NCBI GenBank assembly: GCA_014729135.1
Contig: WJKK01000001.1
Location: forward strand, 730,919-794,918
DNA: 64,000 bases
Source: a candidate division WWE3 bacterium
GTDB lineage: Bacteria > Patescibacteriota > WWE3 > UBA101185 > UBA10185
Direction: 5' to 3'
Shown here: positions 2,567 to 55,215 of the stretch, one piece after another
Position numbering within the stretch: the stretch's first letter is position 1
Layout: each line of letters begins with the position of its first letter
Notes under the pieces: generated by a model
Seen by the model: only the letters and a program-made list of their open reading frames with translations
The model's database searches: none
What the model was told of the DNA's origin: nothing
Position numbers and translations under genes: made by a program

Positions 2567-3265
2567 ATGCAACATTATATAGACACAAAAAAACTAGGTG
2601 AGATCCTGGAAATAGAGATTAAAAAGGAGAATTTATTCACTAAGGCGTTTACGCATCGCTCTTATTTAAACGAGCATCCGACTTATGAGTTTCCTTCAAA
2701 TGAGCGGTTGGAGTTTTTGGGAGATGCGGTTTTGCAGCTAATTTCCTCTGAGTATCTTTTTGGAAAGTATGAAAATCCTGAAGGTGACTTAACTAATTTT
2801 AGGGCAGCTTTGGTTTGCACTAAGTCGCTGGCGCAGGAAGCACGCCGCCTAGGTTATGGTGACTTTTTGCTGCTTTCTAAAGGGGAGGAGGCCACAGGAG
2901 GACGTAACCGTCAGTACATTTTAGCTAATACTTTTGAGGCGGTTTTGGGCGCCATATACCTCCAGGAGGGCCTAGAAACATGTCAAGAATTTGTAACTAG
3001 AGAGCTTTTATATAAGGCAGATAAAATTATTGAGGAGGAAACCTATAAAGATGCTAAATCTCAGTTTCAAGAGGAGGCGCAGGAAAAACTGGGAGTAACT
3101 CCGCAGTATAAAGTGCTGGATTCTTGGGGACCCGATCATGAAAAGCAATTTAAAGTTGGCGTTTACTTGGCACGTGAAGAATATGGAGTGGGCCAAGGCT
3201 CCAGTAAACAGAAAGCAGAGCAGCAAGCAGCCGTTAAGGCATTGGACAAGCTAACCACTGTTTGA
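2567..3265 (+). CDS. rnc: Ribonuclease III
   Basis: 'ERLEFLGDAVLQL' RNase III signature, with a C-terminal dsRBD-like region. Confidence 0.85.
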   Translation: MQHYIDTKKLGEILEIEIKKENLFTKAFTHRSYLNEHPTYEFPSNERLEFLGDAVLQLISSEYLFGKYENPEGDLTNFRAALVCTKSLAQEARRLGYGDFLLLSKGEEATGGRNRQYILANTFEAVLGAIYLQEGLETCQEFVTRELLYKADKIIEEETYKDAKSQFQEEAQEKLGVTPQYKVLDSWGPDHEKQFKVGVYLAREEYGVGQGSSKQKAEQQAAVKALDKLTTV

Positions 3266-3279
3266 TAGAATCCTTCCGT

Positions 3280-3648
3280 ATGTCAGTAACAATAAGATTA
3301 GCGCGAATAGGAAAGAAAAACGCACCGGCCTATAAAATAGTTGCAGCTCAAACCCGCACAAAGAGGACCGGTAAATTTCTGGACGTCCTGGGCTATTTCA
3401 ATCCGTCAGAAGGAAACGACGTTTATGAGATAGACATGGACAAATATCAAGATTGGAAAAATAAAGGTGCTCTCTCTACGGAAGCTGTGGAGAAGTTGAT
3501 TGAAGGCACCTATGAATATAAAGTTTATAACCCTAATGCTGAGGAAGAGGTAGAGGAAGAACCCAAGGAGGAAGCGGAAGCGACTCCAGAGGAGGATTCC
3601 ACTGAAGCTGAAACTGAAGCGGGGGAAGAGAAGGAGAACAATAAATGA
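3280..3648 (+). CDS. rpsP: 30S ribosomal protein S16 with acidic C-terminal tail
   Basis: 'MSVTIRLARIGKKNAPAYKIVAAQTRTKRTGKFLDVLGYFNP' matches S16. The C-terminus is Glu-rich and low-complexity. Start chosen at the internal Met of ORF 3262. Confidence 0.85.
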   Translation: MSVTIRLARIGKKNAPAYKIVAAQTRTKRTGKFLDVLGYFNPSEGNDVYEIDMDKYQDWKNKGALSTEAVEKLIEGTYEYKVYNPNAEEEVEEEPKEEAEATPEEDSTEAETEAGEEKENNK

Positions 3649-8354: not shown

Positions 8355-9218
8355 TTATTCAGCTTCCGGTGTGGCTGCGGGAGCTTCCGATTCTTCCGCA
8401 GAGCCCTCCTCAAGTTCCTCCGGGGGAGTTTCCTCTACAACTATGTAATCCTCGGGAGAAATATCATAATGCCTTAAACTCTTAACCTTCTCTATAAAAG
8501 CGGTGAATTGAGGACTTGCAATATCGAGCTCAATGACCTCGTCGGTTACTGCATCTGCACGCACATCCAAATAGGGGGAAATCAGCTTAAAATTAGCAGA
8601 AAAGCCTGTCGCATCTTCCTGTTCGCTTTTGTTATAGCGGAAATCTTCCACTACAACTAAGCGGGAGGCATTTTCAACCCTTTGCATTAAGGCCAAAAGA
8701 CCTTGACGGGGTCCTAAAGCCTCCAAAGATACGGTCACATTTTCGTAAGAAACATTTTGGGCGCCTCCGGAGGGATCTGAAGAACTTGAGGAACCTACAG
8801 CGGGTACAGCTGAGCTACTCCCTTTGCTGTATGCAAGTTGCTCTACACCTAAAACGGATTCCCTTGCCATCAAATCTACCTGAGCTAGAAGCTCAGGAAC
8901 TGTTGGTTCGGACACTAAAGTCTTGTTTATAAAATCAGAATACTCCCGAACAACTTCTTCTAAATCAACCAGTAAATTAAGCGTGGAAACTTTGGTTTGC
9001 AACTGGCGGGAAAGATGCTGCTTCTCATCTAGGTTCTCTTGGATAAGAGGCATCTCCTGATATTTAGGGAAAAGGACTAAAAAAAGTAACAAGCCGGTAG
9101 CAATAAGCGAGATCAAAGGTATTAAAAAGTTTAACAAAAAGCCAGTCACCTTAGAAAGATCAAAGCCTTTTACATTAAGGCTATCTAAATTAACTTCTTG
9201 ATTTAAATCCAAAGCCAT
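8355..9218 (-). CDS. pilO: Type IV pilus assembly protein PilO-like (with acidic C-terminal tail)
   Basis: Single N-terminal TM plus a coiled-coil, directly downstream of pilM and pilN. Overlaps the pilN stop. Confidence 0.55.
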
Positions 9219-9826
9219 TAAAACCCTTTCTTTAAAGCCTCCCCGTTATAAGTAATGGAAATCACGTAATCTACAGTGGAATCGTTAGAATTTAAGGTCA
9301 CTGAGTTTAGGTAGGCCGTTTTAAAAATTGGAGTTTTTGAAGCACTTGGAGTTGATTCGTTAATAGAAGGATCTAAAACCTCCTGTTTATTTAAGTTAGC
9401 TAAAAATTCAGAAACCAGTAAGTAATTGGAGGCTCTTCCCGACACCGAAAGCTCCGAAGGTCCTTCAAAAGAAAAGGACGTCACCTCCACACCCTCCGGA
9501 ATACGCGAATTAAAATCCGCTAACAAATCCGAATAATACAGTCGAGAATTTAAAATCCCCGACAAAGCCTGATACTTTTTATACAAATTACGTGCCACAA
9601 TTTCCGTTGAAGCCATTCCCTTAATTTCAGAACGCGCCTTCTCAATACGGGATTCCTCCACTTCTATCTGCTTTTTTAAATCAGCTACCTTGAAATAAAA
9701 GTAAGCGCTAACACCGGCAACCAAAACAAACAAAACAATAGAAATAATTGAACTAAACTTAATAGCCTTAGTTTTAAACTGCTCAACTTTTTCTTCTTTT
9801 GTTAGTAAGTTTATGTCTGAATTCAT
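9218..9826 (-). CDS. pilN: Type IV pilus assembly protein PilN-like
   Basis: Short cytoplasmic N-terminus, one TM ('IISIVLFVLVAGVSAYFYF'), a coiled-coil, and the characteristic position after pilM. Confidence 0.55.
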   Translation of the reverse strand: MNSDINLLTKEEKVEQFKTKAIKFSSIISIVLFVLVAGVSAYFYFKVADLKKQIEVEESRIEKARSEIKGMASTEIVARNLYKKYQALSGILNSRLYYSDLLADFNSRIPEGVEVTSFSFEGPSELSVSGRASNYLLVSEFLANLNKQEVLDPSINESTPSASKTPIFKTAYLNSVTLNSNDSTVDYVISITYNGEALKKGF

Positions 9827-9886: not shown

Positions 9887-10954
9887 CTAAGAAACCTTCA
9901 TGGCCAATCCCACAGGAACAGCATAAATAGGGCCTTTCCTATGAAAATCATCCTTAGAAGTATCTACCGAATCCAAATTTAAATTTGTCCAGGGATTAGC
10001 CAGCTCCACCTCCACGTCAAAATTATTCACCATGTATAAAAGTAAACCGGGCATAAGGGCAGTTTCTCCTGAAACAACTATCTTATTTATTCTAACATTT
10101 GGATTGTGTGTCGTAAAAAACACTTTAGACTTTTTAATTTCTGATATAAGCCGATCAAATAAGGGATGCAGGGCCTCATAAACTTTGCCTTCTACTTTGG
10201 ATTTGTCCAGACCGTAGCTATTCTTGTATTCTTTAGCACGAGTCATATCCAAATCCATTTTTTGGGCTAGGCTCTTTGTAAGCGTCAGATCTCCAAGAGG
10301 AATAGTGCGTGTTAAGATCACAAAACCTTTATAGGCCAAAACTATTAGAGTCTCTTTGGGACCAATTTCTATAACTAGCTCTGCCCCGGTAGCATGCATG
10401 TCGCCTCCTAAAGCACGTGTCATGGAAAGGGATTCGGGCTCTAAGGCACGCGGAGTTAGCCCAGCCTCTTTAACGATTTGTATGTATTTTTGAGATACAG
10501 TTTTTTTAGCGGCTACTAGCAAAACGCTTGTTTTATCCTGATCCTCTAGATCCAAGTTCATAACGGCATAACCAAGTGTCACCTCCTCCAAGGGAAGGGG
10601 GATGTACTGTTCGGACTCGTATTTAATAAAGTTATCTAGGTCTTTTTTGCTCATATGAGGAACTTTTATGGTTCTAACAAAGACCTGATCTTGAGGAAGA
10701 CTTACAATTGCATCAGTTGATTCAAAGTTAAAGTCAAAGAGAAACTTTTTTAGCTCTCTAGAATAGTGAGTACGGTTTTCTTCATTTTCTATATCTAAAG
10801 TAAAATTGGGCATCTCATGGGATCCCCAATTTAAGAGTGAGTTTTTGGATTTTTTCTTTTCAACTTCAACAGCACTAAAACCGTTAGTTTTAAGGTGAAG
10901 ACCTAGGGCAGACATATTTATATGATAATGCTTAAGGCTCCTTTTATCAATCAA
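9887..10954 (-). CDS. pilM: Type IV pilus assembly ATPase-fold protein PilM
   Basis: 355 aa with an actin-like fold pattern ('LVIEIGPKETLIVL', 'IVVSGETALMPGL'). First gene of the pilMNO trio. True start may be an internal Met. Confidence 0.65.
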   Translation of the reverse strand: MIDKRSLKHYHINMSALGLHLKTNGFSAVEVEKKKSKNSLLNWGSHEMPNFTLDIENEENRTHYSRELKKFLFDFNFESTDAIVSLPQDQVFVRTIKVPHMSKKDLDNFIKYESEQYIPLPLEEVTLGYAVMNLDLEDQDKTSVLLVAAKKTVSQKYIQIVKEAGLTPRALEPESLSMTRALGGDMHATGAELVIEIGPKETLIVLAYKGFVILTRTIPLGDLTLTKSLAQKMDLDMTRAKEYKNSYGLDKSKVEGKVYEALHPLFDRLISEIKKSKVFFTTHNPNVRINKIVVSGETALMPGLLLYMVNNFDVEVELANPWTNLNLDSVDTSKDDFHRKGPIYAVPVGLAMKVS

Positions 10955-14827: not shown

Positions 14828-17800
14828 CTACTCCTCAACTTCCCAAGAAATATCTACTAAACTTAAAAACAGACTTTCAAAGTCGGTTCCTGCTGCCACA
14901 CTATCCATAAGCTGTTTGTGCAAATAATAAGCATAAGCAGGATCATAATGAACGGCAACTCCGGGATACATGTTTCGCAACTCACCCAAGTCGTTGAATG
15001 TACGGTTGCGGTTAAAGTTCATAGTACCTCCTGAAATAAAAGCACCTTCTAAAACTAGCGAAGTGTCTCCCGGGTCGTCAATTTCTTCATTTTCAAATTC
15101 AACAGAGGGGAAGTTTATGTCACCTAGGGCAAAAACAGAGGCTCCTATTGTGACATCAGAGGCATCTCCGGCGGGAACGTCTACACCCAATTCTTCGGAG
15201 AAAGTCACACCTCCATTAACAACGAGCAAAATCTTTCTATTGTCATTACCGCTGTAAAAGGGCTCCTCAAAAGTGATGTCGCCATCAATATAGATCACAA
15301 CCACACCATCAGAAGCAATATCACCGGAATAATCTCCCTCGCCTCCGATGTCTGCTAAAACGTCTTCAAAAGTGGAAGCAGACATGGAATAGACCATTGT
15401 GGGGTCTAAACCGGAAAAGTCTTCTGTAGAACTAATGTCCGCAAACTCCCCACCGGATAAGTCACCGGAGGCAATTGCCAGAAAAAGGGGAGAAGAAGCA
15501 TAGCCGTACTCAGGGGCGGAAGAGATGGCACTATTACTGTCAGAGCTTTCAACGTCAGATAAGTCTCCCGCAGATAGGGCAAAATCATCTGTCATGTAGT
15601 TGTCATAAACTCCGGGGGTTTCGGGGGTAATCATTGTAATAGCACTTCCGGAGTAAACACCTCCATTAACTACGGTAAACCAACCATCTAAAGCGGAGGT
15701 AAGCTCGTAACCTAGATTAATGGTTACATTACCGGGTACTGTGTAAGGTCCTGTGGCTAAAAGCCCCGGCCCTACACTTAAGGTTCCCGGAGTAACACAG
15801 CCCAGCTGAAAGTTTGTGTCTGTTGGGGCATCCAGGTCGTCCAATTCCAGATACATACCTGTAACATCAGAACCAACAGGGAAGGCGTCACTCTGATTAT
15901 TACTACTATATGCTCCTGTACCGGAATCTATACTAAACTCAAAGTTTTGTTGCGGATCAACAGGATCCGGAACTTCTGCGGTCATTGTAAGATCCGGAGA
16001 TGAAGCAAAATAAGCTAAAGTTTCTCCTTCAGCAGGATTGCAGGTAGTAGTGTCAGAAACAGTGGCGTCGAAAATGGTCCCGGAAATTTGCGGATACCGT
16101 AAAGTTACATTTTTGCTACAAGTAACACTAGCCTCACAAGAAGAATCGCTTAGGTTATCTGAAACTTCCAAAGATATAGGGGCGGAAAATCCACAAGAAG
16201 ATTCGTAAAAATTAGGGGCTGTATAAGAAGTGGAAATTTGTCCTGTAGAAACTCCTGAGGCTTGCTCAGGATTAAAAGAACCCAAGCAAGTAAGAGGTGT
16301 GGAACTCCAAGAATAATCCATATTGTAAGTATCGGAAATAGTGGAAGTGTAAAGCTCAGTGTCTCCAAAAAGTACTGTGCCAGAACCACTTATTGCTGTA
16401 CAGGAGGGGGTATCATTTTTTTGGATAGTGGTTCCTGCACAAAAAACCTGGGAACTATCATCACAGTTATCTGCGTAGGCGTGTATATGAACAGTTCCAT
16501 ATCCTGGATGATTCGCCAAGTTTACAGTTGCTTTCCAAGTGTTCCCACCTACATTAGAAGCCGAATACCGTACAATATCATCTTGACCACCTGTAGCCGT
16601 CCAAGTAGGAAATTTCACTGTCTCAGCGTTGGACACATTGTTAATATAAATATCCACTGTTGAATCAGAACCCAAAACGCAATCAACGCCAGAGCCGTCT
16701 TGCGTAACGGTAATGGAACTAGAACCACAAGTTGGAGCGGAACTATAACCACAATCATCTCCGCCGCCGCCACAATCACCGTCTGCAGGAAGACACGCGG
16801 AAATACCCTGACCACCCCCACAAGGGTCTGTTGGAAGCCACCGAGGATCACAGGTAGAATGGCACGTATCGCGTATATCACCGCATGTCCAATCACAGGA
16901 ACAGTTTGGGGGATCTTCTGGATCTTCTGGAGGGTCTTCAGGGTCAGGATTTACCCAATGACAATTCCAAGAGTCGCAGGAATAGGCACGTAAATCGACG
17001 CAACCGCCATAACTGGGCTCATAATAACAAGGATTCTGGCCAGTAGCACAGGTATCACAATAGGGGTCACCCTCCTCGCATTCACAGACAGTAGTACAAG
17101 GGGTGCCCGAACAATAAGCATATCCCCTCTTCAGAACCCCTAAACCCTCCAGGAAACCAATTAAACCACCATTCTTAGAAATATCCACCAAACCAACATC
17201 AGCATTCAAAGCCGTAAAAAACTCCTCGGGAGGAGAGTAATTAGATGAAACGACCTCAAAATCAGACGTCAAATAATCAACGCCCTGATAAAGCAACCCG
17301 CTAAAAATCTTCTCAGCCACAACTTCATTGCTTTGCAAAACAGCAGGCGAAATGCTAACTTCTAAAACAACATCTTCATCCTGCGCCAGAAAATTCAAAC
17401 CCATCTCCACATCTGTCCCCGAAAAAATCTTGGCGGAACTCAAATCATCCGTTAAATAAATCGTCAAAGTTTCAGGTGTAACATATTTCGGTGGAACCTC
17501 AGAGTCATTTTGCAAATACGTCTTGACTTCATCAAGCGAATAGGTGTAACGTGCAGCATTTTCTGTAAAAAAACCTTTAGTGTATAAATAAGCGGAAAAC
17601 TTTTGCTTTCCTGCAGGAGTAAACTCAATTTCAAAATCCTCAATTTGAGACTCTACGCGCACACTATCCTCAAATAAAGAAATATTAGAGTTGTCTCCGG
17701 ATTCCTGTATTTTTGAAAATGGTGAAGGAGTTTCGTCCCGAGAGGGGGATTGATTTGTTTTGGCAGCTCGTGGGGTGTCCTTTAGAAATAGTTTGGAAAT

Positions 17801-17923
17801 TTGTTCTACAGAGAGGGGGAAACTATAAGTGGTTATGGAAAATGTCAAACCTCCAAGCACAAAAATCAATAAAAAGGTCAAAAGGGCTAGAATTTTCAAA
17901 CCTTTAGGCAGTTTCAGCTTCAT
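14828..17923 (-). CDS. Giant (1031 aa) secreted Cys-rich protein, candidate pilus tip adhesin (PilY1-analogous)
   Basis: N-terminal signal/TM 'ILALLTFLLIFVLGGL'. Central cluster of about 40 Cys ('CSGTPCTTVCECEEGDPYCDTCATGQNPCYY...'). 'PEDPPEDPEDPP' linker. First gene of the pilus locus. Confidence 0.35.
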   Translation of the reverse strand: MKLKLPKGLKILALLTFLLIFVLGGLTFSITTYSFPLSVEQISKLFLKDTPRAAKTNQSPSRDETPSPFSKIQESGDNSNISLFEDSVRVESQIEDFEIEFTPAGKQKFSAYLYTKGFFTENAARYTYSLDEVKTYLQNDSEVPPKYVTPETLTIYLTDDLSSAKIFSGTDVEMGLNFLAQDEDVVLEVSISPAVLQSNEVVAEKIFSGLLYQGVDYLTSDFEVVSSNYSPPEEFFTALNADVGLVDISKNGGLIGFLEGLGVLKRGYAYCSGTPCTTVCECEEGDPYCDTCATGQNPCYYEPSYGGCVDLRAYSCDSWNCHWVNPDPEDPPEDPEDPPNCSCDWTCGDIRDTCHSTCDPRWLPTDPCGGGQGISACLPADGDCGGGGDDCGYSSAPTCGSSSITVTQDGSGVDCVLGSDSTVDIYINNVSNAETVKFPTWTATGGQDDIVRYSASNVGGNTWKATVNLANHPGYGTVHIHAYADNCDDSSQVFCAGTTIQKNDTPSCTAISGSGTVLFGDTELYTSTISDTYNMDYSWSSTPLTCLGSFNPEQASGVSTGQISTSYTAPNFYESSCGFSAPISLEVSDNLSDSSCEASVTCSKNVTLRYPQISGTIFDATVSDTTTCNPAEGETLAYFASSPDLTMTAEVPDPVDPQQNFEFSIDSGTGAYSSNNQSDAFPVGSDVTGMYLELDDLDAPTDTNFQLGCVTPGTLSVGPGLLATGPYTVPGNVTINLGYELTSALDGWFTVVNGGVYSGSAITMITPETPGVYDNYMTDDFALSAGDLSDVESSDSNSAISSAPEYGYASSPLFLAIASGDLSGGEFADISSTEDFSGLDPTMVYSMSASTFEDVLADIGGEGDYSGDIASDGVVVIYIDGDITFEEPFYSGNDNRKILLVVNGGVTFSEELGVDVPAGDASDVTIGASVFALGDINFPSVEFENEEIDDPGDTSLVLEGAFISGGTMNFNRNRTFNDLGELRNMYPGVAVHYDPAYAYYLHKQLMDSVAAGTDFESLFLSLVDISWEVEE

Positions 17924-17999
17924 GTTTTTAGTTTAAGAGATTTTTTAGTTGTTGGCAAATTTTTTATGTGTTTTTAGGGGAAATGTTTGATAGAGGGAA

Positions 18000-18033
18000 G
18001 AGGCCGACCCAGACACGTGTCCGTGTCGGCCTC
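18000..18033. repeat. Compound palindrome at the low-GC / high-GC junction
   Basis: gaggccgac (18000-18008) ... gacacgtgtc (perfect 10-bp palindrome, 18012-18021) ... gtcggcctc (18025-18033). The outer arms are exact reverse complements. Confidence 0.6.
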
Positions 18034-18064
18034 AGAAGTCGAAGTTGAAGTTGGGGAGGGGGGT

Positions 18065-18649
18065 CTAGGGGAGGGGGTGCCACCGACCAGCGTCGGAGCT
18101 GGGGATGGAGTAGGCGGCGGGCAATCCGTCAACGTAACGGACGGCAACAGCCGTTCCATCCTCCAGGAGGACAACAGCAGCACCCGCGCCGCCAGGGTAC
18201 TCCGCCAAAGGTGCGCCCATCGGCGACGTGGTCCACCGACCCCACTGATATCCCCAGAGAAGAAAATTGGAGCCGTCGCTACGCCGGAGGGCGTAGGGTT
18301 CGTAAACGACCTCGGCGGGGCAGCTGGCGTCGTCACGCAGGGCCGCGACGAACAGCTGATCTGCCGCAACGGGAACCTTATACCAGGGCGTCTGGTATGC
18401 CGAAACAGCTTCGTCACTCAGGAGCGTGCGCGCCTGCGCCAACCGCTCCTCATAGGCCGCACGGGCGGACGAATCTGGTGCGACGCAGATGGACATGTAC
18501 GTGCCGTCTGCTCGGCGGGTGATCGCCGCGAGCACCGCGTCGGGGTCAACCGCCGGCGGAGCCGAGGAGACACCATTGGGAACGAATAGCACGATAATGA
18601 GAACGACGCATACAGTAATCAACGCCAAACGAACCAGGTTGGTCTTCAT
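18065..18649 (-). CDS. Secreted hypothetical protein encoded in a high-GC island
   Basis: 194 aa from the ATG at 18649, preceded by a perfect SD 'aggaggtg' with a 5-nt spacer. Signal-peptide-like 'LVRLALITVCVVLIIVLFVPNGVSSA'. Codon usage is strongly GC3-biased, unlike the rest of the window. Confidence 0.5.
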   Translation of the reverse strand: MKTNLVRLALITVCVVLIIVLFVPNGVSSAPPAVDPDAVLAAITRRADGTYMSICVAPDSSARAAYEERLAQARTLLSDEAVSAYQTPWYKVPVAADQLFVAALRDDASCPAEVVYEPYALRRSDGSNFLLWGYQWGRWTTSPMGAPLAEYPGGAGAAVVLLEDGTAVAVRYVDGLPAAYSIPSSDAGRWHPLP

Positions 18650-18746
18650 CTTGTCACCTCCTGTGACCATCAGTGCGAAAAGAGCCTGCAACTTCAACTA
18701 TTCAAATTTCAAACTGTCTCGGATTATAGGATAAAACCTCCCAAAT

Positions 18747-18820
18747 TGCAAATTCACGCATTAGACAGTAATTTTCATCACTCAAGCCCTCCTGTTAGAT
18801 AAAAATTCAAAGAAATTTAA
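18747..18820 (+). repeat. Left copy of ~75-bp imperfect direct repeat
   Basis: 'tgcaaattcacgcattagacagtaattttcatcactcaagccctcctgttagataaaaattcaa...aatttaa' is ~80% identical to 21097-21173. Confidence 0.6.
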
Positions 18821-18950
18821 CACCTCGTATCCTAAGCAACCAGTCTATTGTGTAGAACAATGTAACTACCAGCTTATGCAGGGGTGCAGAGGGGGAAGGG
18901 AATAATTCGATAAAAAAGATATTATGGAAAAATTCCTCGTAAGGATTGAT

Positions 18951-19796
18951 CTATAATTCTACGCTTGTCCTTAATAACCGGTCTCTTATTTTGCTCGTTT
19001 TAGTAGAATAAAGTTCATATCTTATTCCCCTTAATAAGCATTCGCTGTTACAAAAAACAACATCCGGACTAAAAAAGTATCTGGCTTTTCTTTCTTTACT
19101 CAATTGCAGAAAGGTGACTTTAATTCTACCGTCCTCCTCATGATAAAAAGTAGTAAAGTGTTTTAATCCCGTATGCTCTGAAGAAGTTAGTTTATCAAAT
19201 TTACGAGTATCTAAACGTTCGGAAAAATAATTATTAATAATATTGGGGGGACTTTTTTCTTTAGAATCTTCTACGTATTGTTTACCCTTTTCATGTTGCA
19301 GAAAATATTTTGTTATTGCTCCCACACTCATATAAATGTTTCCTCCATCTGTTAAACAAGGAGGCTGCTGCTCTAAAGTCTCATAAATTCTTCCTGTATG
19401 TAGGATCGATAAAAAACTACTATTCTCTAAACCCTCCTTCGAAAGCAAATCTTCTAAGCTCTCTAAAGGGGAAGTGCCCTGTTTATAACCAATTTTAACA
19501 AGAGCTAAATTTTTATCTCCAAGCTTCACACCTTCTATTAAAAAATTTGAACCTTCCTTTTTTCCAATAAAGGCCGGGGCTTCTGTTAAAAAACCTAAAA
19601 CACTTTCCCCGTTTCTAAAGATAATCGGCCGTTGTTCCAACTCCTCCAAAGAATAAAGCTTGTTAAGGTTTTCTAAATAAACTTCTAAAACCTTTAAAAT
19701 ATTTAGCCTGTTTTGCTCTTTTATAATAGATAGAGTTAAAGACACAGTAGAATTATACAGGATAAAAAAAGAACCACGATAGATCCCGAACAGCAA
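18951..19796 (-). CDS. Hypothetical protein (281 aa)
   Basis: Long ORF with window-typical composition. No recognisable motif. Lies between direct repeat A and the IS element. Confidence 0.4.
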   Translation of the reverse strand: MLFGIYRGSFFILYNSTVSLTLSIIKEQNRLNILKVLEVYLENLNKLYSLEELEQRPIIFRNGESVLGFLTEAPAFIGKKEGSNFLIEGVKLGDKNLALVKIGYKQGTSPLESLEDLLSKEGLENSSFLSILHTGRIYETLEQQPPCLTDGGNIYMSVGAITKYFLQHEKGKQYVEDSKEKSPPNIINNYFSERLDTRKFDKLTSSEHTGLKHFTTFYHEEDGRIKVTFLQLSKERKARYFFSPDVVFCNSECLLRGIRYELYSTKTSKIRDRLLRTSVEL

Positions 19797-19938
19797 AAGA
19801 TCTATCGTGGCTTCGCCACCTTACGCTTCTTCGGCTCGATCTCAATCAGAGGGGCAATCGCAGTTGGTCGGTACCCTGTATTTTGGACATAAATCTATCA
19901 AAAACCTAGTATAAAATTAAGGTAAGGAGGATTATATT

Positions 19939-20187
19939 ATGTCTGAAACAACCCCACTTGAGGTTAGGAATAAAATCATGGAGGAGGTAAAGCTGGGTGA
20001 ACGCACTATAGCTGCCATAGCCAAGGATTATCACATTCCCGCAGGTCGCGTATACAACTGGATAAGTAGAGGTGTGTCCCAGGATGCACATGTTGTAGAG
20101 ATTAGGAGGCTTCGACGCAAAAACAAGGAACTATATGAAATAATTGGCCGATTAACAGAGGCCGTAGAGCACTTTAAAAAAAAATGA
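19939..20187 (+). CDS. IS3-family transposase OrfA (HTH)
   Basis: 'ERTIAAIAKDYHIPAGRVYNWISR' helix-turn-helix. Ends in KKK* over the A9 tract. Confidence 0.7.
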   Translation: MSETTPLEVRNKIMEEVKLGERTIAAIAKDYHIPAGRVYNWISRGVSQDAHVVEIRRLRRKNKELYEIIGRLTEAVEHFKKK

Positions 20188-20203
20188 GGTAGCCAGGTGG
20201 ATA

Positions 20204-21061
20204 TTGAGTCAGGACAACCAATATATTACCGTACAAGAGCTTTGTAACTGTTTAGATATTTCAAAATCCTCCATTTATTATGAAAAGAAGCTTCCCAAAA
20301 AAGACTTGAAGCTAAGTAAGCAAATTATTGATGTAATTAACAAGAATAAGACATATGGTCACAGACGGGTTGCCTTAGAGCTTAACATTAACAAGAAAAG
20401 GGTACTTAGAGTAATGAGGCTATTTAATATCAAGCCCTTAATAACCAGGTCTAAAAAGCCCCGATATAAATATAAGAAGGGAGAGTCTAGATTTGAGAAT
20501 CTAATTAAGACTATATGTCCAATAAGGCCTTATGTAATATTAGCTACTGATTTTACCTATTTGAGGTTTAAAAATTCCTTTTTGTATTTAGCTACTGTAT
20601 TAGACATATATACTAAGGAAATATTGGGTTATGCGGTTTCTACCAGACATACTCAAAACTTAGTATTAGAGGCTGTTAAATATGGATTAAGTAAATGCAA
20701 AACCTTACCTCTTTTTATACATTCTGATGAAGGTAGCGAATACATGTCAGATGCGTACATAAATTATGTACACTCCCAAAATATTGAACTATCAACAAGT
20801 GATATTGCTTCCCCTTGGCAAAACGGATTTAAAGAATCCTTTTATTCCCAATTTAAACTTGATCTGGGTGCAAAGAATCTAAACAGATTTGATACCTTGG
20901 GAGAAGTTGTAGGACATATTTATAAAACAATCTATTATCACAATAACCAAAGAATTCACACGACTATAAAAACACAACCTGTTAAATTTAGAAATCAAGA
21001 ATTAGCTAAATGGTCTGATGTTTGTTGTGATAGATTGGTGTCCAAAAAAATGGGTACTTGA
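20204..21061 (+). CDS. IS3-family transposase OrfB (integrase core, DDE)
   Basis: 'HRRVALEL...VLRVMRLFNIKP', 'ATDFTYL', 'HSDEGSEYMSDAY', 'SPWQNGFKESF' rve-domain motifs. Frame is open back to 20168. TTG start in the track. Confidence 0.75.
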   Translation: MSQDNQYITVQELCNCLDISKSSIYYEKKLPKKDLKLSKQIIDVINKNKTYGHRRVALELNINKKRVLRVMRLFNIKPLITRSKKPRYKYKKGESRFENLIKTICPIRPYVILATDFTYLRFKNSFLYLATVLDIYTKEILGYAVSTRHTQNLVLEAVKYGLSKCKTLPLFIHSDEGSEYMSDAYINYVHSQNIELSTSDIASPWQNGFKESFYSQFKLDLGAKNLNRFDTLGEVVGHIYKTIYYHNNQRIHTTIKTQPVKFRNQELAKWSDVCCDRLVSKKMGT

Positions 21062-21096
21062 CATTTAGACAGAGCATAGCAATTAAGAAGATTGAG

Positions 21097-21173
21097 TGCA
21101 AATTCATTAGATAATTATTTCTGTCATCCAAGCCCTCTTGTTAGATAAAAAATTCAATGCCATCCAAATTTAA
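21097..21173 (+). repeat. Right copy of ~75-bp imperfect direct repeat
   Basis: 'tgcaaattcattagataattatttctgtcatccaagccctcttgttagataaaaaattcaa...aaatttaa', a copy of 18747-18820. Confidence 0.6.
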
Positions 21174-26576: not shown

Positions 26577-27410
26577 TTATAAGTACCAATTTAAGAACAA
26601 GTCTCCTGCTACAAAAACCAGAAGACTGCCTAGAATCATGAAAGGGCCAAAGGCAATCTTATCCTTCATTCCTTTTTTGCCTAGGGCCATCAATCCCAAA
26701 CTTACAACAGATCCTAAAACAAAAGAAGAGAAAATTGCAATAATATTGTAGGGAAAGCGGTTAAAAAGTCCTATTAAAAAAGCAAGGCGAACATCGCCAA
26801 AACCCATCCCTTTACCCTTAGTAATAGCATGTAAAAACCAAAAGAAAAGACCTAAAGAGACTGCAGAAACAACGTCAGACGATTTAAAACCAAACACCAC
26901 GTAGAAAACTCCAACCACTGCCAAACCTGTAAAAATAGCTTCATTAGGAATAATTTGATATTTGGTGTCTGCTAAAAAGATAACGATATATACCGAAAAG
27001 ATTAGTAAAAAATAGGCAAATAGCAAAACCGGATAGATATTGAAGCCCAAACCAAAAGCAGAACCCAGGGATCGAACTAAACCCGCATTTAATCCGGAAT
27101 GCAAAGGGGCGCCACCAAAAACTCCTGATGAAACTGCAGCCAACAAGAATATAACTCCTGTTAAAACCTCCGATAGGGGATAGGCCACTGATAAACGCTC
27201 GCTGCAGTAGCGACATTTCCCCTTGTTAAACACAAAAGAAAAAACGGGAATTAAATCGGCAACTTTTAAAACGTTGTCGCAAAAATCGCAATGAGACCGA
27301 CCAAATAAAATGGATTCTCCTGAAACCAAGCGATCAGCAACTAGATTTAAAAAGGACCCCACAAAAAGCCCCATGACAAAAACAAAAAAGTAGTAAAAGT
27401 ATATCTCCAT
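26577..27410 (-). CDS. pilD: Prepilin peptidase PilD (A24 family)
   Basis: 'CDFCDNVLKVADLIPVFSF...CRYCSERLS' tetracysteine motif and 'GMGFGDVRLAFLIGLF' catalytic Asp region. Start taken at the internal Met. Confidence 0.8.
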   Translation of the reverse strand: MEIYFYYFFVFVMGLFVGSFLNLVADRLVSGESILFGRSHCDFCDNVLKVADLIPVFSFVFNKGKCRYCSERLSVAYPLSEVLTGVIFLLAAVSSGVFGGAPLHSGLNAGLVRSLGSAFGLGFNIYPVLLFAYFLLIFSVYIVIFLADTKYQIIPNEAIFTGLAVVGVFYVVFGFKSSDVVSAVSLGLFFWFLHAITKGKGMGFGDVRLAFLIGLFNRFPYNIIAIFSSFVLGSVVSLGLMALGKKGMKDKIAFGPFMILGSLLVFVAGDLFLNWYL

Positions 27411-27481
27411 TAAAGTGTTCTCAATTTTAAAGTAGTCTCGGATAGCGTTTAAAACTTGGCATCCCCATATCAAAGAACCGG

Positions 27482-27991
27482 CTACAAACTCAAGTCAGTC
27501 CCAATCTCATATAAACCGGGAGAAACTCCACCATCAAGACGCATTTTGTTAGCATTATCCGCCGACTCCAAAGGCACGCTCAACTTAAACTTTTGAGTTT
27601 GACCATTTGCCACAAATTCATAAACATAAGGCTTCTCGTTAAGGGAATCTATGGGCAATTGATTCAAATATTTACGCAATCCGGGAGTTTCCTCCATAAC
27701 ATTAAACTTTACCCAGCCTTTTCCATCCACTTTAAAAGAACCGGTTAAAGTGGTGCAACTATCACAATCTGAAGTATCCTCCAAGGTAATAAGCTCTTCT
27801 GCCAAGGAAAGCTGCAAGGCCTTGTTAAGTTCATCCAAATCCTGGATTCTTTCGGCATCTCGACTTTTTGCAAGAATTGCCTGCGGATCTATGGCTACAA
27901 AGAGTATTCCGGTTATTGCCACCGCAACTCCTAAAACAATTATTAATTCGGGAAGTGTGAAGCCGGTCTTTTGGCAGGTTTTTTTATTCAT
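27482..27991 (-). CDS. Type IV pilin / pseudopilin
   Basis: 'KTGFTLPELIIVLGVAVAITGILFVAI'. Start taken at the internal Met (MNKKTCQ). Confidence 0.65.
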   Translation of the reverse strand: MNKKTCQKTGFTLPELIIVLGVAVAITGILFVAIDPQAILAKSRDAERIQDLDELNKALQLSLAEELITLEDTSDCDSCTTLTGSFKVDGKGWVKFNVMEETPGLRKYLNQLPIDSLNEKPYVYEFVANGQTQKFKLSVPLESADNANKMRLDGGVSPGLYEIGTDLSL

Positions 27992-28034
27992 ACACCTAGT
28001 ATAACAAAGTAGAAAAGTAGGACGGAAAAGAGTT

Positions 28035-28101
28035 AGGCTGTGTTTCTTTCGAACGAATTTTGGCGTACTCGCCAACCTGAGAGAGAAAGAACATACAGCC
28101 T
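28035..28101. repeat. Long imperfect hairpin between pilC and pilin gene
   Basis: aggctgtgtttctttc (28035-28050) / gaaagaacatacagcct (28085-28101), with a 34-nt loop. Confidence 0.4.
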
Positions 28102-28136
28102 AACTCGCCCCCTTGCACTACTCCCAGCTTAAAAAA

Positions 28137-29339
28137 CTAAATTGAAGTAGTAATATTATAAATCGGCGTAATAATCGAAACAATCAAAAGCCCCACCATA
28201 CTTCCCAATAAAACCAAAATAATCGGCTCCAAAGCAGCCGACAAATTCTCGATAGCCGAATTCGTCTCACCCTCATAATAATCAGCCACCCTACCCAAAA
28301 CCTCATCCATCTTACCCGTCTCCTCACCAACTCCCGCCATCTGCCCCAACAAAGCCGGAAAATTCTTATTCCCTCTAAAAAAGTCTGACAAAGAATTGCC
28401 CCGCTCCACATACTCCGCTGCATCCAGGGAAGCCTGCTTTAAATCGTGACTGTTAACAACCGAAGAAACGATGTTAAGCGACTCCACAATTGGAATAGCC
28501 GAGTTAATAAGCAAACTCAGTGTACGAGCAAAAGAAGTAATTTCTTTATTCCTATTAATCTTCCCAAAGACCGGAAGCTTGAAGCCAATTTCAGATAAAA
28601 GCTTCTTTCCATAATCGGTATTCTTAAAATAGCGAAGTGAAACCATAACAGCTCCAATAATTAACAGCAACAAAGCCGTATGCCCCGTCATAAAGTCAGA
28701 AATTGCAATCATAACCTTAGTGGGCAAGGGGAGGGGAACATCTAGATCTTTGTACATGTCCGTTAACTGCGGCACAACCACAATCATCATTAAAATGAAA
28801 ACACCAACCATTGCCAACATAACAATCGCCGGATAAATCATGGCTCCCTTAAACTTAGACTTTAATTCGCGCTCAGCCTCCATTGTTGAGGCCAGGCGCT
28901 TTAAAACAGTGTGCAAATTTCCTGAAGCCTCACCTGCACGTACCAATGCCTGATAAGTGTTAGAAAAAATGTTGGGATACTTTGCAAAGGAATCTGAAAG
29001 GGACAAACCTCCCTCAACATCCCGCAAAATGTTAGAAAGCACCTTGCGAAACTTGTAATTGTCAGTCTGACCGATTAGAACCTCTAAAGATCGCGACAGA
29101 GGCAATCCGGCTGAAATCATTGTAGAAAACTGACGCGTAAAAGTAACAACTTGATCCGTTGGGACCCCTCTAAAAGATAAAATAGACTTTAAAACATCGC
29201 CTTGAGACTTTTCCAAATTAACAATAAAAAGATCCTCCTCCTTTAAAAGTCCAACAGCACCTTCCTTTGTTTTTGCATCAACGGTTCCTGATTTTTTCTT
29301 GCCCTCATGATCTAGGGCAGTGTATTTATATACGGGCAT
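28137..29339 (-). CDS. pilC: Type IV pilus inner-membrane platform protein PilC (GspF family)
   Basis: 400 aa with two GspF repeats and three TM segments. Confidence 0.8.
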   Translation of the reverse strand: MPVYKYTALDHEGKKKSGTVDAKTKEGAVGLLKEEDLFIVNLEKSQGDVLKSILSFRGVPTDQVVTFTRQFSTMISAGLPLSRSLEVLIGQTDNYKFRKVLSNILRDVEGGLSLSDSFAKYPNIFSNTYQALVRAGEASGNLHTVLKRLASTMEAERELKSKFKGAMIYPAIVMLAMVGVFILMMIVVVPQLTDMYKDLDVPLPLPTKVMIAISDFMTGHTALLLLIIGAVMVSLRYFKNTDYGKKLLSEIGFKLPVFGKINRNKEITSFARTLSLLINSAIPIVESLNIVSSVVNSHDLKQASLDAAEYVERGNSLSDFFRGNKNFPALLGQMAGVGEETGKMDEVLGRVADYYEGETNSAIENLSAALEPIILVLLGSMVGLLIVSIITPIYNITTSI

Positions 29340-29351
29340 AAACTTCTTTTT

Positions 29352-30410
29352 TTACTTTAGCAAGCGCCTAACCTGATCCGGCTTATTTGTAAAGCGCAGC
29401 GCTTTATCGGGATCAACTAATCCTTGCTCTATTAAGGTAGCCAAGCTTCTTTCGAGGGAGGTCATGCCTACATTGGAGCTTGTATGGATTACGTTGTCAA
29501 TTTGCTCAAATTTACCTTCACGAATTAGGTTACGAACTGCAGAAGAACCCAGCAAAATTTCAGTAGCCGGGTAAATTTCACCGGATTTAGTAGGCACTAA
29601 GCGCAACGAAACCACAGCTTCTATAATGGCTGCAAACTGAGACTGGATCCCTCCATGTTTATCCTGAGGGAACACGTTAATTATTCGCTCAACTGTTTGA
29701 GAGGCCGAATTCGTATGCAGCGTGGCAAAAACCAGGTGACCTGTTTCCGCAATCCGCAAAGCTGCCGAAACCGTTTCGCGGTCACGCATCTCTCCAATAA
29801 AAACGACGTTAGGATCCTGACGCAAAACTGACTTTAAAGCATTATCCCAAGAAGCTGTATCCACAAAAAGCTCCCGCTGCTCCACTAAAGACTGCTTGTT
29901 ATTAAAAATGTACTCAATGGGATCCTCCAAAGTAATAATATGCTCGGCACGATTTTCGTTAATTTTGTCAATAATTGCAGCTATTGTAGTAGACTTTCCA
30001 TGACCTGCGGGACCTACCACTAAAATCATCCCTTGCTTTAATTCTGCAAGCTGGGAAATGCTTGGCGGAAGATTTAACTCCTCTAAGGAAGGAACTACAT
30101 TAGGAATGTAACGCATTGCAACGGAGGGGTAGCCCTTTTGATAAAAGGCGTTAACTCTAAAACGGGCTTTCTTCCCTAAAGCCACCGAAAAATCAAGCTC
30201 TTTGCTAACCTCCAAAATATCCAACTGATCTTGATCCAAAACTTGCGCCAAAAAGGCGTTAACGTCCTCTATGGTTAGCTGCGAATAACCCGGAAGCTTT
30301 TGCAATTGGCGATTCACACGCACCGTGGGCTCTGACCCAACAACAATATGAAGGTCCGAAGCCTCCACGTTTACAACTTCATCTAAAATCTTTGATGCAT
30401 TAAAACTCAT
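29352..30410 (-). CDS. pilT: Twitching-motility retraction ATPase PilT
   Basis: 352 aa. 'GPAGHGKSTT' Walker A and 'FIGEMRD' follow the PilT/GspE family pattern at PilT length. Confidence 0.8.
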   Translation of the reverse strand: MSFNASKILDEVVNVEASDLHIVVGSEPTVRVNRQLQKLPGYSQLTIEDVNAFLAQVLDQDQLDILEVSKELDFSVALGKKARFRVNAFYQKGYPSVAMRYIPNVVPSLEELNLPPSISQLAELKQGMILVVGPAGHGKSTTIAAIIDKINENRAEHIITLEDPIEYIFNNKQSLVEQRELFVDTASWDNALKSVLRQDPNVVFIGEMRDRETVSAALRIAETGHLVFATLHTNSASQTVERIINVFPQDKHGGIQSQFAAIIEAVVSLRLVPTKSGEIYPATEILLGSSAVRNLIREGKFEQIDNVIHTSSNVGMTSLERSLATLIEQGLVDPDKALRFTNKPDQVRRLLK

Positions 30411-30419
30411 ATTATTTTG

Positions 30420-32192
30420 CTATTTTGCTACTCGCATTACCTCCTCGAGAGTGGTGGTACCCTCTAAAACTCTTAAAACACCGTCTTGCTGCAAACTAAG
30501 CATTCCCTCTGCCTGCGCCTGCTGATGCAACTTTCCGGCGGAGGCGTGGTCTAAAACAAGCTCCGACAAGGCCTCACTCATCGACAAAACCTCAAAAATT
30601 CCAACTCGCCCGGAATAGCCCGTGCCATTACACTCGTCGCAACCCTTACCTCGATATAACTTAATATCATTATTACGCAACTTTTTTAATGATTCAATTA
30701 ATTGCTTATCTTTTGACTGCGAAAGGAGTTTTGACTCTTCCATACCATGCATAATACCTTTAATCTGCTGCTTTACTTCCTCGGGAGGATCTATTTCAGT
30801 TTTACAAACGGGGCAAATTCTACGAACAAGGCGCTGAGCAACAATGGCGTTTACTGTGGACACCAGTAGGTAGTCCTCAATGTCCATGTCAAGCAACCGT
30901 GGAAGCGCACCTGCGGAGGAGTTGGTGTGCAGCGTTGCCAGTACCATGTGACCTGTTAGTGCAGCATGAATTGCCAGTTCCGCAGTTTCACCGTCGCGAA
31001 TCTCACCGACCATGATGACGTTAGGGTCCTGACGAAGGAAGGCGCGAAGGCCGTTTGCAAATGTAAGCCCGGCTTGCGGATTCACCTGCACCTGATTAAC
31101 TCCCGGTATTCTAATTTCTACCGGATCCTCCAGCGTCATGATGTTAACACGCACTGTGTTTAGCTTGTTAAGCGCGGCTGCCAGCGTTACGGTTTTACCG
31201 GAGCTTGTGGGGCCTGTTACCAGAAGCATTCCTGTGGGTTTCAAGATAGCTTCTTCTACACGCTTTAATGAAAGCCCGCGCAATCCCAAATCCTTAAAGG
31301 AGTGAACAGAGCCCTCATCCTGCAAAAGTCGAATAACAACTTTTTCCCCGTTTACTGTAGGCAAAGTGGAAACACGCAAGTCCGTGGCCGTATCACCTAC
31401 TTGAACTTTAAAACGGCCGTCTAAAGGTTTGCGCTTTTCATCCAGCTTCATGTTGGCTAAAATCTTTATGCGAGCAACTACCGGATCATGCATCTGCTTA
31501 GGAAGCGTGCGCTTTTCCTCAAGAACACCATCAATTCGGTAACGCAATCTGGTGCTATCCTCATGCGGTTCAATGTGAATGTCGGAGGCTCCTGTTTTTA
31601 CAGCGGTCTCTAAAATCATGCCCACAATCCTTGCAATAGGAGCATCCCGAAGTGTTGCTGTAGATATCTCCTCGCTGGTTTCATCCAGTTTTAAAGTAGT
31701 TTGATTGATTTCCTCAAGGGCAGCGCTTATTTCCTCGCCAATGGCCCTCCCTTGTAAGTCGCCTAAAACATGAGAAATCTCCCCAGGAGTTGTTATGAAA
31801 GGCTTAACATGAACGTTCTCCTTTTTTTCTATGAACTCTATTGTGGGAAGATCCAGGGGATCCACCATTGCCAGTGAGAGCTTATTTTTTTCTTTGTCAT
31901 ACTCAAAGGGAATGACTTGCTGATTTTTTGCAAGGTCAATGGTTACGTAGTCCATTAGGGAAGGGTCTATTTCCTTGTCACGAAGCGATACAAAAGGAAT
32001 GCCGTAGGATTCACCGTAAGCTTTAATGAAGTCTAGTTCTGAAACGTAGTTGTGCTCTTTAATTATTTGGGTAACGGGTTTTCCGGTGTTAATGTTTTCA
32101 AATTTTATAGCCGAAAGTTGATCGTCGGTGATGAGTTCTTTATCGTGAAGGATGTCTTCAATTGATTTTGTGTCGGTTAGTTGAGTAGGCAT
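30420..32192 (-). CDS. pilB: Type IV pilus assembly ATPase PilB (GspE family)
   Basis: 590 aa. 'VTGPTSSGKT' Walker A, 'MVGEIRD', tetracysteine 'CPVCK...CDECNGTG'. Confidence 0.8.
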   Translation of the reverse strand: MPTQLTDTKSIEDILHDKELITDDQLSAIKFENINTGKPVTQIIKEHNYVSELDFIKAYGESYGIPFVSLRDKEIDPSLMDYVTIDLAKNQQVIPFEYDKEKNKLSLAMVDPLDLPTIEFIEKKENVHVKPFITTPGEISHVLGDLQGRAIGEEISAALEEINQTTLKLDETSEEISTATLRDAPIARIVGMILETAVKTGASDIHIEPHEDSTRLRYRIDGVLEEKRTLPKQMHDPVVARIKILANMKLDEKRKPLDGRFKVQVGDTATDLRVSTLPTVNGEKVVIRLLQDEGSVHSFKDLGLRGLSLKRVEEAILKPTGMLLVTGPTSSGKTVTLAAALNKLNTVRVNIMTLEDPVEIRIPGVNQVQVNPQAGLTFANGLRAFLRQDPNVIMVGEIRDGETAELAIHAALTGHMVLATLHTNSSAGALPRLLDMDIEDYLLVSTVNAIVAQRLVRRICPVCKTEIDPPEEVKQQIKGIMHGMEESKLLSQSKDKQLIESLKKLRNNDIKLYRGKGCDECNGTGYSGRVGIFEVLSMSEALSELVLDHASAGKLHQQAQAEGMLSLQQDGVLRVLEGTTTLEEVMRVAK

Positions 32193-54675: not shown

Positions 54676-54762
54676 TGGTGGGCGAGGAGGGAATCGAACC
54701 CTCACAGGATTGCTCCCATCGGTTTTTGAGACCGACGCGTATACCAGTTCCGCCACTCGCCC
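54676..54762 (-). tRNA. tRNA-Leu (anticodon CAA), type II with long variable arm
   Basis: Minus strand GGGCGAG-TG-GCG..CGC-G-TCGGT-CTCAAAA-ACCGA-(17-nt variable arm)-GAGGG-TTCGATT-CCCTC-CTCGCCC-A-CCA. All stems pair. Anticodon loop is CT-CAA-AA. Confidence 0.85.
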
Positions 54763-54835
54763 TTAAAAAGTTTTCGCAGAAAACTTTTTATGGTGATCAA
54801 AATACGAGCGTACTAACGCGAGTATTTTGAACTCC

Positions 54836-54863
54836 CGTCAAGTGTAGCGAAGCTACCTTGACG
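54836..54863. repeat. Hairpin repeat copy 1 (cgtcaag-t-gtagc-gaa-gctac-c-ttgacg) followed by gaacaaagcttga
   Basis: Perfect nested stems. Part of an ~105-nt tandem unit. Confidence 0.6.
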
Positions 54864-54989
54864 AACAAAGCTTGAGTTTCAATTCGTTTCGTTTCACAAA
54901 ACTTTTCAAGCTGATCGAAATGCGTAGCATTTCGAACTGCCGCAAAATGTCCGACTTTGGAGGACTTTTGCGAACTTCCCTTAAACTCC

Positions 54990-55017
54990 CGTCAGGTGTC
55001 GCAAAGCGACCCTGACG
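54990..55017. repeat. Hairpin repeat copy 2 (cgtcagg-t-gtcgc-aaa-gcgac-c-ctgacg) followed by gaacaaagcttga
   Basis: Same architecture as copy 1, with two compensatory base-pair changes (A-T to G-C outer, A-T to C-G inner). Confidence 0.6.
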
Positions 55018-55215
55018 AACAAAGCTTGATTTACAAAACACAGCATTTAGCTATGCTTAAAAGGTTTGTACTCAAACCTTTTAGAACCAAACTTACTCCC
55101 AAAGCAAAAGGAATTCTAACATAATCCTTTGAAATCGACATGAGAAATTATTCAAGTAATCTCTTTCTCTCTCACGTTTCACGGCGACTTTCTTTTTTTA
55201 TCCAAAAAGACAGCC

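Follow-up and report, generated by a model that had tools for sequence, protein, structure and literature searches.

A GC-rich gene for a small secreted-type orphan protein beside the type IV pilus cluster of a candidate division WWE3 bacterium

Does a sharp island of high GC content in a small CPR genome mean that foreign DNA has arrived there recently, or can it belong to an old gene of the locus? The question is raised by a window of 64,000 nucleotides (the whole stretch of DNA analyzed here) from a candidate division WWE3 bacterium. Here we analyzed the composition of the island, the gene which it carries, the relatives of this gene and the surrounding locus, and we discuss how the unusual composition may have come about and how long it has lasted.

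Composition and gene of the island

The GC content was 0.64-0.66 across positions 18000-18599 in windows of 200 nt, with flanks of 0.33-0.39 just below 18000 and 0.31-0.42 above 18600, and the mean of the whole 64-kb window is 0.416; the jump to about 65% at roughly 18000-18650 that an earlier note on this DNA had described was thereby reproduced. The same note had placed in the island a single minus-strand gene with a perfect Shine-Dalgarno sequence and a signal-peptide-like N-terminus. The gene is real and encodes 194 aa as proposed, its coordinates were slightly corrected to 18065-18649, and both the ribosome-binding sequence and the N-terminus were read as described. The elements of the gene are given below.

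18723..18751, minus strand: sigma-70-type promoter TTGCAA-17 nt-TATAAT, matching the consensus at 10 of 12 positions
18655..18662, minus strand: Shine-Dalgarno sequence AGGAGGTG, 5 nt upstream of the ATG
18065..18649, minus strand: coding sequence (CDS) of the island gene, 194 aa, ATG at 18649-18647 and TAG stop at 18067-18065
18563-18649, minus strand: signal-peptide-like hydrophobic N-terminus of the island protein, residues about 1-29
18000..18033, minus strand: two-tier hairpin, 32 nt 3' of the stop codon

Since it has a sigma-70-type promoter of its own, the island gene is taken as its own transcription unit, and the island as a whole is one ordinary, independently transcribed gene with promoter, Shine-Dalgarno sequence, coding sequence and putative hairpin terminator. 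The encoded protein is identical to the NCBI entry MBD3366433.1 (GF360_03810, a 'hypothetical protein' of a candidate division WWE3 bacterium, on an 864-kb contig); it is acidic (pI about 4.9-5.0), poor in Lys and rich in Ala, Pro, Arg and Gly.

The GC of the island gene is 0.64, with 0.67, 0.53 and 0.71 at the first, second and third codon positions (GC1, GC2 and GC3), and its GC3 ranks at the top of 63 ORFs in the window (about 0.70 vs a mean of 0.40, sd 0.067). The synonymous GC excess, calculated as observed GC3 minus that expected from the codon usage of the window, is +0.30, which lies 7 sd from 29 other genes. With the synonymous usage of the window the same protein would be encoded at a GC of 0.52 and a GC3 of 0.41 in place of the observed 0.64 and 0.71, so that about half of the excess comes from the amino acid content and about half from synonymous choice. 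On the side of the amino acids, the summed fraction of Gly, Ala, Arg and Pro is 0.37 vs 0.22 in the window background. On the synonymous side, codons ending in A account for 7% vs 26% in the background, the codons AGA, AGG, TTA, ATA and AAA are used zero times, and a final G is favoured even in the two-fold purine boxes (GAG, CAG and AAG), a bias which looks like general GC pressure, unlike classic translational selection. The raised GC3 runs along the entire gene and is found at conserved and variable alignment columns alike.

Second in GC3 within the window is the plus-strand ORF 51-869 (GC 0.53, GC3 0.56), which consists of two tandem copies of about 135 aa (102-457 and 507-862) with 69% nucleotide identity; it is an orphan with no match in Pfam or NCBIfam and has no signal peptide.

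Relatives of the gene and the conserved locus

A word-indexed search of 5.8 billion clusters returned one homologue of the island protein, and an exhaustive phmmer search of 1.84 billion representatives returned three, giving four family members at E <= 0.001; only three relatives were thus found among about 15 billion proteins. No further members came from a search with the family profile, and no homologue was present in the viral contigs, plasmids and phages searched. The three relatives and the loci in which they lie are listed here.

P0002: 185 aa, 45-48% identity to the window protein, from an ENA contig (L001)
P0006: 258 aa, 45% identity over the C-terminal part (55% by tblastn), from the WWE3 MAG T3Sed10_354 (L002/L005)
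P0007: 211 aa, 41% identity to the window protein, from two Logan contigs (L003/L004)

Two of the family members are named, and both are labelled candidate division WWE3. The small protein had no match in Pfam or NCBIfam, and a PDB profile search with it gave nothing below E = 0.1, so going by these searches it is a secreted-type protein, putatively of the Sec type, of an orphan family of four sequences. All four begin with M-K/R, followed by 15-20 hydrophobic residues and then a Ser/Ala/Gly-rich stretch, and no lipobox cysteine is conserved across them. The C-terminal third is the most conserved (YPGG...VVLLEDGTAVAV...P.AYS.P..D..W..LP), with an invariant terminal Leu-Pro. The gene was also considered as the target of a DGR and rejected as such, since no template repeat of the island occurs elsewhere in the window; within the family, it is at the C-terminus that the sequences vary least.

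Directly downstream of the island gene lies a giant gene, which in this window heads the type IV pilus cluster. The features of this part of the locus are as follows.

17930..17958, minus strand: promoter-like TTGCCA-17 nt-TAAACT, the -10 box ending 6 nt before the ATG of the giant gene
14828..17923, minus strand: giant partner gene, 1031 aa
6878..13688, minus strand: type IV pilus cluster, downstream of the giant gene, with prepilin-like genes carrying an N-methylation motif
9887-10954, minus strand: PilM, in the pilus cluster
9218-9826, minus strand: PilN, in the pilus cluster
8355-9218, minus strand: PilO-like gene, in the pilus cluster
30420-32192: PilB-type ATPase gene (T2SSE and MshEN domains), within the region 26577-32192, about 12 kb from the pilin/PilMNO cluster

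The giant protein is very acidic (pI 4.05); it has a membrane anchor at the N-terminus, a region rich in Cys and a GBS_Bsp-like repeat, the last giving its only matches in Pfam. In all three related loci found, the homologue of the island gene stands upstream of a homologue of the giant protein; the giant homologues match that of the window with 37% identity (E 1e-58) in L001, 30% identity (E 9e-40) in L002, where one gene lies between the small and the giant gene, and 25% identity (E 7e-18) in L003. The window and L001 are also alignable in the downstream intergenic region, including the hairpin and the start of the giant gene.

The coding sequence of the island gene is kept in frame in the three homologues, and the third positions are near random. 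GGAGG sites like its Shine-Dalgarno sequence also precede the homologues, and the context of the -10 box, TATCCTATAAT, together with a downstream AGTTGAA motif is common to the window, L001 and L002. The start of the giant gene, TAAACT-N6-ATG, is common to the window and L001 (930-950), and no Shine-Dalgarno sequence is visible for this gene in the window (17923-17958). The -10-like TAAACT ending 6 nt before the ATG in both suggests that the mRNA of the giant protein may be leaderless or near-leaderless.

The 'compound palindrome' which the earlier note had seen at the low-coordinate boundary of the island is present at 18000-18033, with 17-nt arms that are 88% complementary, and folds at -26.2 kcal/mol (z = -5.2); what changed is its reading as a boundary mark. 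Comparable hairpins of -24.8 to -30.8 kcal/mol lie directly 3' of the stop codon in L001, L002 and L003. Because a strong hairpin stands immediately 3' of the stop codon in all four loci, the palindrome is probably the intrinsic terminator of the island gene and not an insertion scar. A U-rich tract follows the hairpin in L001 (UUUCUUUUU) and L003 (UUUCUUCGUUU); the tail in the window, UUCCCUCUAU, is pyrimidine-rich without a clean U run, and a consensus terminator scan made no call at the 18000-18033 hairpin. An inverted repeat of 11-14 nt which brackets the island gene (18037-18053 / 18686-18699) was considered as transposon ends or as a stem between the 5' and 3' parts of the mRNA and was rejected, as its duplex energies were no better than those of shuffles in 4/4 loci; it is not conserved.

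Other contents of the island were likewise considered. The long ORFs in other frames had been called spurious by the earlier note, and the homologues bear this out by interrupting the codon-aligned antisense frame with stops (5, 9 and 8 in the three homologues, 1 in the window copy). An antisense overlapping gene (200-aa ORF, 17987-18589, plus strand) is rejected on the 5-9 stops in the same frame of the homologues; this ORF is open only because the window copy has no TTA, CTA or TCA codons. A structured non-coding RNA is also rejected, there being no Rfam match at the gathering score and the CDS of the window folding like its shuffled controls (z -1.4 for dinucleotide and -1.0 for synonymous shuffles, with L002 and L003 weak too). 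The z of -5.7 obtained for the folding of the whole region is an artefact, because the shuffled sequence was of mixed composition and included the terminator hairpin.

The copy of the small gene in L001 (271-828) is far more stably folded than its shuffles, unlike the other three copies, with z of -5.6 for dinucleotide and -6.4 for synonymous-codon shuffling. A canonical G-quadruplex motif, GGGGAGGGGGGTCTAGGGGAGGGGG, lies on the plus strand at 18053-18077, which is the template strand of the island gene, and spans the stop codon of this gene. The 64-kb window contains just one other motif of this kind, and the motif at the stop codon is not kept in the three homologous loci.

Age and origin of the composition

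The small gene has a GC of 0.64 in the window and of 0.56, 0.53 and 0.54 in L001, L002 and L003, and its GC3 in the same order is 0.71, 0.55, 0.51 and 0.54 vs 0.35, 0.28, 0.35 and 0.36 in the neighbouring giant genes. Because distant relatives have it at the same spot and with the same unusual composition, it is read as an old resident and not as a recent import or an assembly error; that its arrival was not recent is a robust conclusion, and we take it to have been passed on vertically at this locus. With three independent relatives, the unusual composition has lasted very long at this locus, and a sharp GC island with foreign-looking codons in a small CPR genome need not signal recent transfer or contamination.

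The synonymous divergence was analyzed at fourfold sites of conserved residues, with four sequences and 37-59 sites per pair, and 80 of 273 pairwise comparisons were identical vs 70.5 expected from composition. The giant gene beside the island shows a similar near-saturation at synonymous sites. A model of ancient transfer, in which the ancestral GC4 is 0.95 and each lineage relaxes toward the composition of its neighbour, predicts 81.2 identical fourfold sites against the 80 observed, and the ancestral fractions retained in this model are 0.53 in the window and 0.27, 0.10 and 0.19 in the others. Ancient transfer followed by uneven and incomplete amelioration therefore fits at least as well as independence, a model in which the sites are saturated and a high-GC equilibrium is maintained and which the same data do not reject. 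The further reading that synonymous saturation proves selection to hold GC3 high was rejected, as the amelioration model fits equally well.

The most economical account is an ancient transfer which has been partly ameliorated. A single acquisition from a high-GC source would have taken place before the four lineages diverged, and the gene would then have decayed toward the AT-rich composition of its host at differing speeds, the window copy being the least decayed. GC richness is a property of the whole family, with the window copy highest. GC12 and GC3 drop together across the lineages. The polarised singleton changes are weak evidence on GC decay: in the window lineage they are balanced at codon positions 1 and 2 (11 AT-to-GC vs 13 GC-to-AT, without net decay), and those of L1-L3 lean GC-to-AT, significantly only in L3, where the direction is ambiguous if the root lies on the L3 branch. 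It is the composition of the gene that speaks for a foreign source, because no donor homologue was found in any collection searched, and under the decay model a foreign origin in the distant past is possible. The whole explanation, namely an old secreted orphan gene of ancient high-GC acquisition with the giant protein or the pilus as its partner, is the one we lean to, at a little over an even chance.

Lawrence and Ochman reportedly proposed the amelioration model for horizontally acquired genes. The island gene is like the genes of that model in its foreign-looking codon usage and GC-shifted amino acids in a low-GC genome, in the joint fall of GC3 and GC1+2, and in that a decay model reproduces its synonymous identity. 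It is unlike them in predating four lineages whose synonymous sites are near saturation, in having no donor or homologue found outside the recipient clade, in having no associated integrase, tRNA or direct repeats, and in that the window copy shows no net loss of GC. If the reading of ancient transfer is true, the window copy is an unusually slow-ameliorating gene.

The gene may instead be ancestral with a high synonymous GC which is actively maintained, through a stable GC-rich mRNA, high expression or GC-biased gene conversion, and this we regard as possible but doubtful. In its favour, the sites are indistinguishable from saturation and yet GC3 stays 0.15-0.35 above the neighbours in four lineages, GC-raising and GC-lowering changes balance in the window lineage, and GC3 is equal at variable and conserved columns; the island gene also has a near-consensus promoter and a strong Shine-Dalgarno sequence, the one ribosomal protein gene of the window is likewise raised (GC3 0.51), and the L001 copy is far more folded than its synonymous-codon shuffles (z = -6.4). 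Against these points, the codon arrangement of the window copy brings no extra mRNA structure (z -1.4 and -1.0) and L002 and L003 are weak in this respect, the G-ending in GAG, CAG and AAG resembles general GC pressure, the pilin genes and the giant gene of the same locus have ordinary GC3, and L1-L3 lean toward GC loss. If composition is maintained after all, a gene-specific force holds synonymous GC high in a 41% GC genome.

A bolder proposal, that the coding sequence is kept GC-rich on purpose in a gene which works with a pilus-associated giant adhesin, is in our judgement quite unlikely. In one variant, a high-GC host would be the ancient source of the gene, which would have been retained because its product mimics or binds the host. 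In the other, the GC-rich nucleic acid, as mRNA or as DNA, would have a role of its own, for instance through extreme stability of the transcript or through the G-quadruplex at the stop codon, which might influence read-through toward the giant gene.

Recent horizontal acquisition from a high-GC donor, e.g. an actinobacterial host, which the earlier note had preferred, is very improbable after this comparison. The strongly atypical composition and codon usage (GC3 z = 7), the sharp boundaries of the island and an IS3-family element 1.2 kb off would all suit it, but GC-rich homologues stand at the same position in three other independent assemblies, so that the gene is ancestral and GC-rich at the same site in 3/3 related loci, the copies differ at synonymous sites nearly to saturation and to a degree similar to that seen in the giant gene next to them, and the promoter and terminator flanks can be aligned with those of the relatives. 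Moreover, the IS3 element has its own 33-nt inverted repeats and the island lies outside it, and neither tRNA genes nor flanking direct repeats bracket the island. Among the marks of a genomic island, atypical composition and codon usage were found, and an empty site in a relative, a donor homologue and mobility at the borders were not. An actinobacterial or any other donor is not borne out, as a homologue is absent from the high-GC organisms, plasmids, phages and viral contigs searched, and none lies outside the four-member family among 1.84 billion representatives. A donor was also sought with the back-translated pattern LLEDGTAVAV, and the four high-GC metagenome contigs so obtained encode RecB-like helicase-nucleases with a chance match of 10 residues.

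An assembly chimera or contamination, in which a foreign high-GC fragment was joined into a low-GC contig (the other reading offered by the earlier note), has the abrupt change of composition as the sole point in its favour and is effectively excluded, because the assemblies with the same locus are independent: the same order of small and giant gene, with the same GC contrast, is seen in ENA, NCBI and Logan assemblies made from other samples, the CDS is flanked on both sides by AT-rich native-type promoter and terminator DNA shared with the relatives, and the region upstream of the promoter is duplicated elsewhere in the low-GC DNA of the window.

Possible role and neighbouring elements

The small protein may work outside the cell with the giant protein or the pilus, e.g. 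as an accessory or as a partner in assembly, and we propose this with low confidence from its sequence and position. The partnership with the giant protein is suggested by the conserved position together with a shared Cys-rich module. The small protein of L002 has a 74-aa Cys-rich insert (P0006 residues 77-150; L002 379-600), which is 68% identical (E 5e-33) to the module of its own giant protein at L002 about 3204-3416, and this points to a probable exchange of the module within the L002 locus. AlphaFold was run twice on the four-sequence alignment with pLDDT of 46 and 45, and since the fold is thus not predictable, the proposed role is drawn from gene order and this one module; in the low-confidence run, residues 3-22 of the island protein form a helix. 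The small protein was also considered as a paralogue of the N-terminal domain of the giant protein and rejected, with a hhalign probability of 0.3% and nothing found by BLASTP. It is not a pilin, as it lacks the N-terminal prepilin methylation motif (PF07963), and neighbouring genes match N_methyl.

Among Saccharibacteria, type IV pili drive host binding (PMC9894109, PMC11623550). Like other orphan secreted proteins found by type IV pilus genes in CPR/Patescibacteria, the island protein is a small secreted-type protein heading a pilus cluster in a CPR genome, here paired with a giant surface protein having a GBS_Bsp-like repeat. It differs from them in being no pilin, in having no similarity in Pfam, NCBIfam or PDB, and in being linked to the pilus by gene order. 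We know of no counterpart in WWE3 to the pilus-mediated host binding of Saccharibacteria and, to our knowledge, WWE3 has no cultured members and no known hosts.

PilY1/PilC-type tip proteins are pilus-associated large adhesins with accessory partners. By analogy, the locus is like theirs in that a very large non-pilin protein heads a minor-pilin operon and a small conserved partner gene adjoins it; it is unlike theirs in that similarity to a PilY1/PilC family was not detected at the sequence level and in that the small gene is transcribed separately, from a promoter of its own and with a putative terminator of its own. The analysis flags a conserved pair, i.e. a small secreted-type orphan and a giant Cys-rich surface protein heading a WWE3 type IV pilus cluster, and contact with a host most likely runs through surface proteins of this kind. 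The island gene itself is a modest evolutionary curiosity and a caution for HGT calls made from composition only, and it is no new kind of system.

Further observations concern the surroundings of the gene in the window and in the relatives. The island gene sits between the pilin/PilMNO cluster and the region of the PilB-type ATPase, and the minus-strand ORFs 26577-30410 adjoin the PilB-type gene. The extra gene between the small and giant genes of L002 (1111-1971, GC 0.51) encodes a secreted-type acidic product whose tail is rich in Pro and Thr and whose C-terminal hydrophobic segment ends in RRRKP. TATAAT, with AGTTGAAAA after it, is present in the promoter of this gene too, and the gene has no counterpart in the window. 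No match was found in the window for this second L002 gene or for the upstream fragment of L001.

The IS3-family element at 19871-21057 has 33-nt inverted repeats which are 82% complementary and lies 75 nt upstream of a 281-aa orphan ORF (18951-19796, minus strand), the element and the island being separated by another gene. Its two ORFs are as follows.

19939-20187: IS3 orfA (HTH)
20204-21061: IS3 orfB (rve integrase core)

A direct repeat of about 80 nt and about 80% identity is found at 18747-18825 and 21093-21170. The first copy comprises the -35 box of the island gene's promoter and the region upstream of this promoter, and the second lies just outside the right end of the IS3 element and has a promoter-like TTGCAC-17-TATGCT on the minus strand. 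The 23-nt core of the repeat occurs at these two sites only, with 0 occurrences expected by chance. The repeat looks like a duplicated regulatory region whose second copy may have been cut off by the IS from the 281-aa ORF that it probably drove. The sole tRNA gene in the window is a tRNA-Leu CAA at 54676-54762, and beside it lies a 56-nt direct repeat with 86% identity (54827-54882 and 54981-55036).
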